Of a DNA stretch of 64,000 bases, positions 21,823 to 23,799 are shown in pieces. The stretch's first letter is position 1, and each line of letters opens with the position of its first letter. The DNA is from a virus. The stretch lies in the IMG/VR virus record IMGVR_UViG_3300033075_000810. One strand, 5' to 3'. The position numbers were made by a program, and so were the translations under genes. Below the pieces are notes generated by a model. It was not told where the DNA came from. It did no database searches and was given only the letters and a program-made list of their open reading frames with translations.

Positions 21823-22233
21823 TCAAGAGGATAGCAGTTTTTGCTCCCATTCCTTCAAACCCATGACAAACCTGGGGTTGGGGTCGGTGTCGGGGTTCAC
21901 CTTGCCGATCTTCTCGATAGCCTGCTGCCGCTTCAGTCCGTGATACTTCATCAGGTAAGCGGCGGTCACCATCGTGCTGCGGCTGATGCCGGCCTGGCAG
22001 TGGATGTACACCGGCATGTCAGCCTTGCGGAAGGCGTGGATCGCGTCCACGACCGTCTCCAGCCAGCGGATGCCGGGGAACTCCGCGTCAGGGATGTACA
22101 TCTTCAGGTGTGCCCTGAGGGTTGGCGGCAGATTGGCTGACCTGTCGTTGAGTGTCACCACTGCCTGAACGTCTGCGGGCAGGCCCTCGTAAGGGATGCC
22201 GCCCTGGTAGATGCCGTCGATGATCTTATACAT
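21823..22233 (-). CDS. dual-specificity / protein tyrosine phosphatase
   Basis: VYIHCQAGISRSTMVTAAYLM contains the CX5R P-loop (HCxxGxxRS). Confidence 0.75.
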   Translation of the reverse strand: MYKIIDGIYQGGIPYEGLPADVQAVVTLNDRSANLPPTLRAHLKMYIPDAEFPGIRWLETVVDAIHAFRKADMPVYIHCQAGISRSTMVTAAYLMKYHGLKRQQAIEKIGKVNPDTDPNPRFVMGLKEWEQKLLSS

Positions 22234-22293
22234 GACCTAATGGAGCGAGGGCCGCGACTCTTTCCGGTCGCGGCCCTCGCTATCTTCTCGGCG

Positions 22294-22488
22294 TCACCGG
22301 GGCGAGTTGTCGCCCCTCTTCTCGGCGTCCATCCTGTCGATCACCTCGCGGCGGTGGACCGGCACGTCCTTGGGGGCCTGGATGCCCAGGCGAACCTTGC
22401 CGCCTTGGACCTCCACGACCTCCACCACGATGTCCCGGCCTTCCCCGATGACGACCTGCTCGTTCTTGCCTCGCGTGAGTACCAGCAT
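22294..22488 (-). CDS. csrA: carbon storage regulator CsrA/RsmA homologue
   Basis: MLVLTRGKNEQVVIGEGRDIVVEVVEVQGGKVRLGIQAPKDVPVHRREV aligns with CsrA [47 protein letters not shown]. Confidence 0.8.
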   Translation of the reverse strand: MLVLTRGKNEQVVIGEGRDIVVEVVEVQGGKVRLGIQAPKDVPVHRREVIDRMDAEKRGDNSPR

Positions 22489-22575
22489 TGTCGGACCTCC
22501 ATGTGTTGACCATCGGGGCGGCGATCCTTTTCGCGTTCCGTCAGGTCAGATCGGGGGAGACTGTACCTTGAACGG

Positions 22576-23418
22576 TTACTTCGGGTCAATGCCTAGTTGT
22601 TTGTCGCGGAGCCAGCCGGTGTAGGTCCAGACGCCGGCTGACACCGTAACCTGAGGCTCGTAACCAACTTCCTTCTTGATCTTGGTTAGGTCGCACTCGG
22701 TGTAGCTCTGGTAGCGGGCCGGGTCGAACGGCATGTCGATATACTCGATCTCCTTGTCGGACCCCGTCGCCTCCAGCACACACCTAGCCAGGTCATCGAA
22801 GCGGGTGGCAGTGCCGTTGCCCACGTTATAGACGCCCTCGCCGTTGAGCAGTGCCAGTCTGTTCGCCATCACCACGTCGCTGACGTGGACCCAGTCCCGC
22901 TTCTGGCTGCCGTCCTTGAAGAGTTTCAGCGTCTCCCCCCTGAGTGCCTGGACAATCAGGTGGCGGATGGTGGAGGCACGCCTGCCCTTGTGGCACTCAA
23001 ACGGGCCGTAGACGTTGCAGTACCTCAGGCCGACTGCCCGCACGCCCTTCCGCTTGGCCCAGTCGAAAACCCACTCCTCCATCGCCGCCTTGGAGCGGGC
23101 GTAGGGGTTCAGCGGCCTGAGTTCCTGGGATTCGACGTAGGGTGCCGGGCCGTCCCCGTAGACGGCGGTGGAGGAGGCGAAGACGAAGACCTCACAGCCC
23201 TTGTCGAGGTGCTTCTCAAACAGGCGGCGGGTGTAGTCCACGTTGGCCGCGAACATGCTCGACTCGTCCATGTCGAGGGTGTCGTTATTGGCTGCCTGGT
23301 GGAGGATGGCCTTGACGCTGGCCTCGGTGTCGGCGGTCGCCCCTGGGATTCTCCTCAGGATGTGACCGCCGATGAAGCCGTCCGAGCCGGTGACGAGTAC
23401 TGGGTGTGGCTGTTCCAT
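22576..23418 (-). CDS. hldD: ADP-L-glycero-D-manno-heptose-6-epimerase-like NAD(P)-dependent epimerase
   Basis: VLVTGSDGFIGGHI Rossmann motif; LRYCNVYGPFECHKGRRASTIRHL and IEYIDMPFDPARYQSYTECDLTKIKKEVGY parallel E. coli HldD ([54 protein letters not shown]). Confidence 0.7.
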   Translation of the reverse strand: MEQPHPVLVTGSDGFIGGHILRRIPGATADTEASVKAILHQAANNDTLDMDESSMFAANVDYTRRLFEKHLDKGCEVFVFASSTAVYGDGPAPYVESQELRPLNPYARSKAAMEEWVFDWAKRKGVRAVGLRYCNVYGPFECHKGRRASTIRHLIVQALRGETLKLFKDGSQKRDWVHVSDVVMANRLALLNGEGVYNVGNGTATRFDDLARCVLEATGSDKEIEYIDMPFDPARYQSYTECDLTKIKKEVGYEPQVTVSAGVWTYTGWLRDKQLGIDPK

Positions 23419-23421
23419 GAC

Positions 23422-23799
23422 CTAAGGAAGTAGGGCAGGCTCCAAATCGAAGCCGGCCTCCTTCAGCCTGGTCTTCAGGTCTTCGGCCTTGAACGGTTTG
23501 GCGAGGAAGGCGACCGGGCGACCGCCGACGCTGTCCACCTTGCCGCCGCCGCTGTAGAGGATCACTGGGGCGGCGATGTCCAGTTCGTTCCAGACCCTCT
23601 GGGCCACGTCCTCGCCCCTCCAGGGGCCGAGTTCCACGTCGATGATGAAGCCGGCGACGAGGTCGCCCATCTGCCTGGCCTCGTACATCATCTTGTCCGG
23701 GTCGCTGTACACCAGGGCGTTGTAGCCCAGCGAATGCAACAGCAGGGCGGTGTAGTTGGCGACGTAGTCGAGGTCATCAATTACCAGCACAGTTCGCAT
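23422..23799 (-). CDS. stand-alone response-regulator receiver (REC/CheY-like) domain protein
   Basis: VLVIDDLD...GFIIDVELG...VAFLAKPF carries the conserved acidic pocket, phospho-acceptor Asp and Lys of REC domains. Confidence 0.7.
   Translation of the reverse strand: MRTVLVIDDLDYVANYTALLLHSLGYNALVYSDPDKMMYEARQMGDLVAGFIIDVELGPWRGEDVAQRVWNELDIAAPVILYSGGGKVDSVGGRPVAFLAKPFKAEDLKTRLKEAGFDLEPALLP

Follow-up and report, generated by a model that had tools for sequence, protein, structure and literature searches.

The window analysed here is the whole stretch of 64,000 nucleotides (nt) of IMG/VR virus record IMGVR_UViG_3300033075_000810. Between positions 21823 and 23799, four consecutive genes follow each other on the minus strand, encoding a receiver, an epimerase, a CsrA homologue and a phosphatase. 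In transcription order, these genes and the features between them are:

23422-23799, minus strand: stand-alone receiver (REC) domain protein of 125 amino acids (aa), the first gene
22576-23418, minus strand: HldD-like extended-SDR nucleotide-sugar epimerase of 280 aa, the second gene
22489-22575, minus strand: csrA leader of 87 nt with three A-N-GGA motifs
22294-22488, minus strand: CsrA homologue of 64 aa (Pfam CsrA), the third gene
22244-22281, minus strand: G+C-rich hairpin (CGGAAAGA) with a perfect 15-bp stem and a loop of 8 nt, between the stop codon of csrA and the start codon of the phosphatase
21823-22233, minus strand: Cys-based dual-specificity phosphatase of 136 aa (Pfam DSPc), the fourth gene

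An initial annotation of this sequence had read the open reading frames (ORFs) in the same way, as four consecutive co-directional genes, and had drawn them together into one signalling cassette. The ORFs are all present on the minus strand and in this order. The idea of a single cassette is not supported by the comparison with related genomes, which points to a longer block of genes inherited together.

Three related contigs were reached through homologues of the epimerase. Their gene content was read, and tblastn was run with all window proteins. The gene orders are as follows:

L040 (epimerase 79% identical): OGFr_N, epimerase, CsrA, phosphatase, 96-aa gene, methionine aminopeptidase, 213-aa gene, further genes, vault-like gene; no receiver
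L037 (epimerase 62% identical): OGFr_N, DUF3626 (opposite strand), receiver, 149-aa gene, epimerase, CsrA, phosphatase, 89-aa gene, methionine aminopeptidase, further genes, vault-like gene
L041 (epimerase 48% identical, 669,302-bp contig): epimerase, OGFr_N, CsrA, nine small genes including a homologue of the 96-aa gene, methionine aminopeptidase

The corresponding flanking genes of the window are:

25169-25666, minus strand: OGFr_N-family protein (opioid growth factor receptor N-terminal region)
21342-21632, minus strand: 96-aa protein with two Cys pairs (CHNERC...CSYEC) and, read by eye, a C-terminal segment resembling a helix-turn-helix (HTH)
20315-21079, minus strand: methionine aminopeptidase (Peptidase_M24), the downstream anchor of the conserved block
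15776-18397, minus strand: vault-like protein of 873 aa (Pfam MVP_shoulder 1.9e-25, Vault_3 8.6e-11)

From the OGFr_N gene over the methionine aminopeptidase gene to the vault-like gene, the region is collinear in the clade, and the order of the flanking genes is kept as well as that of the four genes. Because this collinearity is region-wide, the adjacency of the four genes reflects shared ancestry. Their common direction is likewise uninformative on function, since 105 of the 119 genes predicted in the window by third-codon-position G+C content lie on the minus strand. The four-gene set as a whole, which the initial annotation had suggested to look for in relatives, is not kept in all of them: L040 has no receiver, and in L041 neither a receiver nor a phosphatase was found within 8 kb. 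Only the closer relatives have the phosphatase.

Between the window and L040, the ratio of nonsynonymous to synonymous substitution rates (dN/dS), of which the relative values are to be trusted given near-saturated synonymous sites and a strong codon bias, is about 0.2 for the epimerase (0.18), CsrA (0.22), the phosphatase (0.19), the methionine aminopeptidase and the OGFr_N protein alike. The epimerase is thus under purifying selection and not a pseudogene.

Outside this clade, 30 IMG/VR contigs with CsrA homologues and two epimerase loci revealed no comparable cassette, one of the CsrA contigs having an unrelated SDR gene. Another phage-like contig has a phosphatase homologue of 47% identity on its own, a bacterial contig has one of 41%, and the 39 further, distant metagenomic loci returned by a scan with a phosphatase alignment hold no CsrA, epimerase or REC. 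Contigs of 113 kb and 363 kb carry HldD-like genes beside different neighbours. Altogether, neither the 40 loci of more distant phosphatase homologues nor the four large phage-like contigs with more distant epimerase homologues have the other genes alongside.

The spacing and structure of the intergenic regions divide the locus further. The start codon of the epimerase lies 3 nt past the stop codon of the receiver, followed by spacers of 87 nt between epimerase and csrA and of 60 nt between csrA and the phosphatase. The latter holds the hairpin at 22244-22281, with a folding free energy of -38.4 kcal/mol (z = -5.1; 0 of 200 shuffled sequences as stable). At the same site, L037 and L040 have equally strong hairpins of other sequence, with stems of 15 and 16 bp; in L037 a UUUUU run comes after the stem, as in intrinsic terminators. 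Judged by these sequences, the element is terminator-like or may stabilise 3' ends, and its structure is conserved. The transcription unit with the epimerase and, here, the receiver upstream thus probably has csrA as its last gene and ends at 22244-22281; the phosphatase probably starts or belongs to the next one. A second hairpin upstream of the receiver (23885-23945) resembled the csrA hairpin by eye but was dropped, being no more stable than shuffled sequence (z = -0.05).

These results bear directly on the proposed cassette, in which receiver and phosphatase would intercept host phospho-signalling, and CsrA and epimerase would execute the output. The four genes are adjacent with the gap between receiver and epimerase being just 3 nt, the triad of epimerase, CsrA and phosphatase recurs in the window, L037 and L040, the adjacency of CsrA and phosphatase is probable on a 1321-bp NCBI contig as well, and the receiver precedes the epimerase in two genomes. 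However, with the flanking gene order equally conserved, adjacency adds no signal. The receiver is dispensable, as L040 illustrates, phosphatase and receiver are both missing near their companions in L041, a terminator-like hairpin separates csrA from the phosphatase, and distant homologues of the four genes never co-occur. The pairing of phosphatase and receiver, part of the initial annotation, also lacks a precedent: the substrates of Cys-based dual-specificity phosphatases are phosphomonoesters, these enzymes are not known to act on the aspartyl-phosphate of receivers, and no known mechanism couples the two. An integrated cassette is therefore improbable.

Individually, the genes are largely what they had been taken for. 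The CsrA homologue matches Pfam PF02599 with E=2.1e-21 (76.1 bits, cut-off 27), its residues 1-53 covering the whole 53-position model, and PHROG 9500 ('CsrA-like regulator') with E=2.6e-18. It falls marginally under the NCBIfam equivalog cut-offs (NF002469, 72.0 vs 73; TIGR00202, 61.8 vs 70.1); by these scores it is a member of the family, though not a certified equivalog. The protein aligns end to end with E. coli CsrA (1Y00), and its L2, L4, R6, V42, V44, R46 and V49 pair with L2, L4, R6, V40, V42, R44 and I47, which, from published mutagenesis, are the RNA-binding residues on strands beta1 and beta5 of the E. coli protein. The good conservation noted in the initial annotation is thereby borne out, including the equivalent of R44. 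Residues M1, L2, L4, R6, H45, R46 and E48 are invariant in 16 sequences. Position 7 is Gly where E. coli has Arg, at a site that is variable across homologues, and two residues are inserted in the beta1-beta2 turn. A tblastn search of 50,697 GenBank phage records gave no match at E<=1e-3.

Among cellular proteins, the nearest CsrAs are those of Planctomycetota, which account for 75 of the 80 loci kept (one genome per species) at 47-71% identity and include Planctomycetaceae, Pirellulales, Fuerstiella, Gimesia, Thermogutta and anammox genera. The best named protein match is also from Planctomycetaceae (P0276). The phage csrA was most likely captured from a planctomycete host, and the host of the element probably belongs to the Planctomycetota. 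The initial annotation had pointed to the host CsrA and the Rsm RNAs as a further lead; the first led to this phylum, and for the second, Rfam at gathering thresholds reported tRNAs only across the whole window and no CsrB-, RsmY- or RsmZ-like RNA. A GGA-density scan of 44 intergenic regions likewise found nothing sponge-like, none exceeding about 4 GGA per 100 nt against a background of 2.4. A gene for FliW was not matched among the window ORFs covered by the Pfam scan, which took in about 45 of the 119 ORFs.

In about 11 planctomycete loci, csrA lies divergently beside an operon for a REC-zinc-ribbon protein, an FHA protein and an RsmD-like methyltransferase:

L062, L072, L074, L079, L082, L097, L102, L077, L080, L087 and L120: operon at about 600-2650, minus strand, upstream of csrA at about 3001

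The host REC-zinc-ribbon gene was considered as the source of the phage receiver and rejected, as there is no detectable similarity between them.

The last A-N-GGA motif in the csrA leader of the window (ACAUGGAGG, 22504-22496) lies over the Shine-Dalgarno sequence. Four relatives share the CA-N-GGAGGU block without any change (alignment A4), and the GGA motifs upstream of it are not conserved. The leader is suggestive of an autoregulatory site; the motifs are compatible with one and prove nothing.

The phosphatase matches Pfam DSPc PF00782 with E=5.7e-20 (71.9 bits, cut-off 33.5). It contains the P-loop H78-C79-Q-A-G-I-S-R85-S86, corresponding to the CX5R motif HCQAGISRS reported before with its catalytic Cys and Arg, and a general-acid Asp at D49 ('IPDAEFP'). 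H78, C79, R85, S86 and D49 are invariant across ten homologues (alignment A5). Weaker Pfam matches were obtained to Tc-R-P (42.7 bits), PTP-SAK (27.1 bits, at the cut-off) and PTP-NADK. Neither a signal peptide nor a transmembrane segment is present in the protein; the N-terminal hydrophobic stretch of the bacterial homologues is missing from the phage copies. In cultured phages there are distant matches only, at about 30% identity (Gordonia and Rhodococcus phages), and the IMG/VR scan revealed no relatives.

The epimerase matches Pfam Epimerase PF01370 with E=3.9e-43 (148 bits, cut-off 20.9). Its top NCBIfam family is TIGR02197 heptose_epim with 220.6 bits, the next family scoring 103.7. In the PDB, the sequence matched best is that of E. 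coli AGME (1EQ2, E=7.5e-41), and identity to enterobacterial HldD is about 37-39% over the aligned part (about 39% to rfaD by tblastn). It keeps the Gly-rich motif, S82/S83, Y106, K110 and the lysine K144 of the HldD-type motif 'NVYGPxExHKG'. Aligned to the E. coli residues, S82/S83, Y106, K110 and K144 are invariant in 100 homologues. They correspond to the catalytic Ser/Tyr/Lys and the second catalytic Lys of HldD, which include Y140, K144 and K178 in E. coli numbering.

The N-terminal part of the epimerase is reduced. Eight residues replace the segment equivalent to AGME 20-66 (beta2-alphaB-beta3), and the TIGR02197 and NF008360 matches begin at model position 64-65. Aligned with E. coli and Salmonella HldD and with homologues of about 300 aa from candidate phyla radiation (CPR) bacteria and DPANN archaea, the deletion lies between helix alphaA and the 'HQAANND' strand in the window protein and in three phage relatives. 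In these four phage-clade proteins, 22-28 aa (22 in the window) separate the Gly-rich motif and HQAA, against 40-55 aa, with isolated cases of 75-79, in the other 80 homologues; among the 84 homologues in which both motifs were located, the deletion is thus limited to the phage clade. In the AlphaFold2 (AF2) model (pLDDT 95.4), beta1, alphaA and a short loop lead into the strand that is beta4 of other SDRs. In the AGME structure (1EQ2), residues 20-66 include those that contact the adenosine 2'-phosphate of NADP. With Foldseek, the model reaches TM-scores of 0.83-0.88 to UDP-sugar 4-epimerases and HldD; as this cannot tell the two apart, the assignment to HldD rests on sequence. On that basis the protein is HldD-like and not an HldD equivalog. 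The heptose epimerase of the initial annotation therefore holds as to its nearest family, while the score lies under the equivalog cut-off and part of the cofactor domain is gone.

The match of the receiver to Pfam Response_reg PF00072 (E=6.8e-6, 26.7 bits) lies under the gathering score of 30.2. A phmmer search against 1.8 billion representatives returned 265 hits with E<1e-3 (best non-self E=1.8e-9), spanning nearly the whole query (about residues 2-115) at about 25-39% identity; in long proteins, the matched part is one internal or terminal segment. D8/D9, the phospho-acceptor D54, S83, F98 and K101 stand at canonical columns (60 homologues; PDB alignments). The AF2 model (pLDDT 94.8) has a Foldseek probability of 1.0 and TM-scores of 0.75-0.79 to the receivers of MtrA, CckA, CheY4 and DivK. 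With its length of 125 aa there is no room for an output domain. The CheY-like receiver without output domain of the initial annotation is hence confirmed, with a complete acidic pocket and a receiver fold in the model. The beta4-beta5 connector is 4 residues below the mode and is modelled without helix alpha4, as in about one third of the nearest homologues. The receiver had no tblastn match in the 50,697 phage records and one weak match only in the IMG/VR scan, and no histidine kinase or Hpt gene occurs among the scanned window ORFs.

The receiver belongs to a variable part of the locus:

23422-25172, minus strand: variable island, of which the receiver is the last gene
23946-25172, minus strand: rest of the island upstream of the receiver, encoding an 88-aa protein, a 152-aa protein and a DUF6210 protein

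Gene turnover has a hot spot between the OGFr_N and epimerase genes (window 23422-25172, L037:5647-7994, L040:1659-1754). L040 has no genes here but a gap of 94 nt, lacking the receiver and the three genes upstream, and L037 carries the DUF3626 gene on the opposite strand, a divergent receiver and the 149-aa protein. The receivers of the window and L037 are 34% identical, while their neighbours are 58-77% identical; the phosphorylation pocket and an 'ELGP ... SGG ... PV.F..KPFK' pattern are common to both. For this pair the receiver has a dN/dS of about 1.1 against 0.27-0.43 for its neighbours (Nei-Gojobori), to be read, like the ratios above, as a relative difference, i.e. about 3-4 times faster.

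The weaker matches of the phosphatase invite another explanation, in which this enzyme acts on RNA ends or nucleotides, the receiver is a cRec-type phosphoesterase, and both serve phage RNA or tRNA repair. Along with PTP-SAK, at its cut-off, PTP-NADK and Tc-R-P, it could draw on the RlaP, Thg1 and 13 tRNA genes in the window, and on the divergent receivers of jumbo phages, which have been linked to NAD/ADP-ribose and RNA-ligase genes (PMC7824862). However, the phosphatase has a far better score with the classical DSPc model, the receiver, which keeps S83 and K101, is matched best by ordinary receivers from hybrid kinases and response regulators, and no RNA ligase, Macro or NADAR gene is adjacent. 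Moreover, D49 is invariant, while the general-acid Asp is dispensable or absent in the RNA-triphosphatase branch of Cys phosphatases. We give this explanation little credence.

A smaller operon was also considered, in which epimerase and csrA, and the receiver where present, cooperate, for instance with the receiver modulating CsrA or with CsrA controlling envelope-sugar genes. All four relatives keep epimerase and csrA as neighbours, a strong hairpin closes the unit in every case, receiver and epimerase look translationally coupled in the window, and the planctomycete loci described above join csrA and a REC gene. Yet the OGFr_N gene stands between epimerase and csrA in L041, L040 does without the receiver, and the phage receiver does not resemble the one beside host csrA. 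The HldD-like genes of other large phage contigs are not near csrA, and the 30 viral csrA loci are without this epimerase. Co-transcription, for its part, is the default in a unidirectional phage genome and no evidence of cooperation. Such cooperation is unlikely, if slightly less so than the cassette. A bolder variant is more doubtful than either: that the phage-clade epimerase, having lost the beta2-beta3, adenosine-binding half of its Rossmann fold while staying under purifying selection, would use a differently bound or different cofactor or would only bind and sequester ADP-heptose. It would be transcribed together with the host-derived csrA and, in some genomes, the fast-evolving orphan receiver, in a phage operon that links the flow of phosphoryl groups through host two-component systems to a reprogramming of envelope sugars and of post-transcriptional control in Planctomycetota.

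With moderate confidence, we favour the reading that the four genes lie in a conserved collinear block of accessory genes of very large, probably planctomycete-infecting phages, and that their products act separately on the host. The host-derived CsrA would bind, as a dimer, GGA motifs in 5' leaders and alter the translation or stability of host and possibly phage mRNAs, adding CsrA activity outside the host's own control. The phosphatase, a complete Cys/Arg/Asp phosphomonoesterase, would most likely dephosphorylate Ser, Thr or Tyr of host proteins. The epimerase, of nucleotide-heptose or related nucleoside diphosphate (NDP)-sugar type, may divert or remodel envelope or glycan precursors, as in cyanophages. 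The receiver, probably phosphorylatable on D54, could be a phosphate sink or a protein-binding switch towards a host two-component pathway.

Several points weigh against this reading. Even at 48% identity, epimerase and csrA are still close to each other, and two relatives have the receiver in the same slot, so these three may be functionally linked. The Tc-R-P and PTP-SAK sub-family matches tie the phosphatase to RNA repair and nucleotide systems, so that its substrates may be RNA or nucleotides. The epimerase scores under the HldD equivalog cut-offs (TIGR02197, 220.6 vs 274.6; NF008360, 150.9 vs 452; Salmonella HldD, as a control, reaches 456 and 669.7). It is also without the segment that holds the adenosine part of NADP in AGME, which makes its activity, cofactor and substrate uncertain, and no other heptose-pathway gene (gmhA, hldE, gmhB, heptosyltransferases) was seen among the ORFs scanned with Pfam. 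The host assignment rests on one gene, csrA. Finally, neither Pfam nor, for the ten largest unknown ORFs, PHROGs revealed a capsid, portal or terminase gene in the window.

The last point concerns the nature of the element itself, for which the following features of the window are informative:

29372-63871: range of 13 tRNA genes, scattered and duplicated, including 3 Gly, 2 Met, 2 Trp and 2 Thr
40779-41711: Thg1 tRNA-His guanylyltransferase homologue
58-1200: RlaP nucleotidyltransferase
59057-59818: 253-aa protein with a ribosomal L7/L12 C-terminal domain at its end
3746-4855, minus strand: LAGLIDADG_2 homing endonuclease with HTH domains, adjoining the HNH gene
4927-5643, minus strand: HNH endonuclease

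The tRNAs, Thg1, RlaP, the methionine aminopeptidase and the L7/L12 domain form a translation and RNA-repair repertoire. The vault-like protein resembles the eukaryotic major vault protein in its shoulder and repeat domains. Within the phage collection, its matches are limited to the huge phages LR756500 (462 kb) and LR756501/LR756503 (735 kb); identity is 38-41% to LR756500 and LR756501, and 64-80% to L037 and L040. It had no PHROG or PADLOC match, and the IMG/VR scan gave no relative. The flanks of the vault-like gene in LR756500 and LR756501 have no further gene in common with the four-gene region. For the OGFr_N protein, the sole match in the phage collection is the uncultured 595-kb phage LR756511.

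Based on the tRNAs, the one-strand gene layout, the mostly short ORFs of which the majority have no family match, the homing endonucleases, the Thg1, RlaP, methionine aminopeptidase and L7/L12 genes and the markers confined to huge phages, we infer that the element is probably a very large phage; the grounds are good but indirect and fall short of a demonstration. The wording 'during infection' in the initial annotation fits this likely phage context, which is itself inferred, no virion gene having been found in the window. A cellular chromosome, a megaplasmid or another large extrachromosomal element, with the genes serving the cell's own regulation, would agree with the absence of virion and packaging genes among the window ORFs scanned and with the lack of close relatives in IMG/VR. 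Against it stand the dense, short, nearly one-strand genes, mostly without family match, the scattered and duplicated tRNAs and homing endonucleases, marker genes common only to published huge phage genomes, and the related 669-kb contig L041, which also carries a tRNA synthetase and similar small genes. A non-phage origin is the least probable of the alternatives considered, and very unlikely. A DNA search with a 6-kb query against GenBank phage records gave a trivial 67% match alone, and PADLOC found no match for the four proteins and six neighbours.

Of the genes around the locus, OGFr_N is part of the conserved synteny, near the epimerase and CsrA, in all four related contigs. The 96-aa gene is kept downstream of the phosphatase or CsrA in all four relatives (tblastn); its product, weakly matched in PHROGs by the C-terminal part of HNH proteins, may be a small DNA-binding regulator. 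Elsewhere in the window lie:

42078-43052, minus strand: second extended-SDR epimerase/dehydratase of 324 aa, unrelated to the first
51596-52327, plus (minority) strand: orotidine-5'-phosphate decarboxylase
52334-52395: longest inverted repeat of the window, with 23-nt arms that are 91% complementary, after the orotidine-5'-phosphate decarboxylase gene
27664-27701: perfect 38-nt palindrome with 19-nt arms and no spacer, intergenic between minus-strand genes
31816-32982, minus strand: 388-aa protein with N-terminal QSregVF_b and ExoX-like_C matches

The 324-aa SDR has a complete N-terminal Rossmann region; its top NCBIfam match is dTDP-glucose 4,6-dehydratase, far under the cut-off. The 388-aa protein has weak PHROG matches including a DNA polymerase exonuclease subunit.

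Hardly any phages of Planctomycetota are known, and the host-derived CsrA provides a concrete host lead for a very large phage lineage, as well as a case in which the import of a global post-transcriptional regulator by a virus can be tested. The epimerase raises the question of how far an SDR cofactor domain can shrink and still function, and the receiver that of whether orphan receivers serve phages to drain or to sense the two-component signals of their hosts. In practice, the chief outcome is a negative one: in a unidirectional huge-phage genome, neighbours that sound like signalling genes should not be taken for a functional cassette unless comparisons support it.

Genes for CsrA, HldD-like proteins and dual-specificity phosphatases have each been described in phages before, and the structural variants found here, a reduced Rossmann fold and a short, fast-evolving receiver, are modest. 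csrA alleles have been catalogued in 30 of 2517 phage genomes (PMC7366521), and knock-down of the csrA homologue PTXU04_00028 of phage PTXU04 reduces plaque size (PMC11879866). Like these phage and plasmid CsrA/Rsm homologues (PMC7366521; PMC11879866), the CsrA of the window is small, is encoded on a mobile element, keeps the RNA-binding residues and is presumed to exert post-transcriptional control on the host. In contrast to them, it comes from a very large uncultured high-G+C phage and is closest to the CsrAs of Planctomycetota (50-70%), not to those of Pseudomonas or enterobacteria.

The phosphatase has the HCx5R(S) P-loop and the general-acid Asp about 30 residues upstream in common with the DSPc family, e.g. 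the eukaryotic DUSP14/16/1 and yeast Sdp1/YIL113W, and MKP-type DUSPs are its best PDB sequence matches. Characterised members measure 144-190 aa, whereas the phage enzyme is shorter (136 aa) and without targeting or docking domain. PTPc genes of actinophages, such as gp121 of Gordonia phage Yvonnetastic, are distant homologues.

With E. coli HldD and AGME (1EQ2), the phage epimerase shares the extended-SDR architecture, the catalytic Ser/Tyr/Lys and the Lys of 'NVYGPxExHKG'. Short SDR epimerases are also present in other uncultured phages. The 269-aa HldD-like SSSM7_133 of cyanophage S-SSM7 is shortened more mildly and adjoins a phosphoheptose isomerase gene, unlike the window epimerase, beside which no heptose-pathway gene was seen among the scanned ORFs.

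Orphan receivers seem rarer in phages than the other three gene types. The receiver has the stand-alone fold, the Asp-Asp/Asp/Ser/Lys pocket and the aromatic switch residue of single-domain response regulators of the CheY, DivK and CpdR type. It differs from these in being phage-encoded, in its Pfam score below gathering, in the shorter beta4-beta5 connector and in its very fast divergence. Compared with the cRec domains of jumbo phages and their NAD/ADP-ribose and RNA-ligase neighbours (PMC7824862), it is accompanied by the epimerase and unknown genes, and its nearest homologues are classical receivers.

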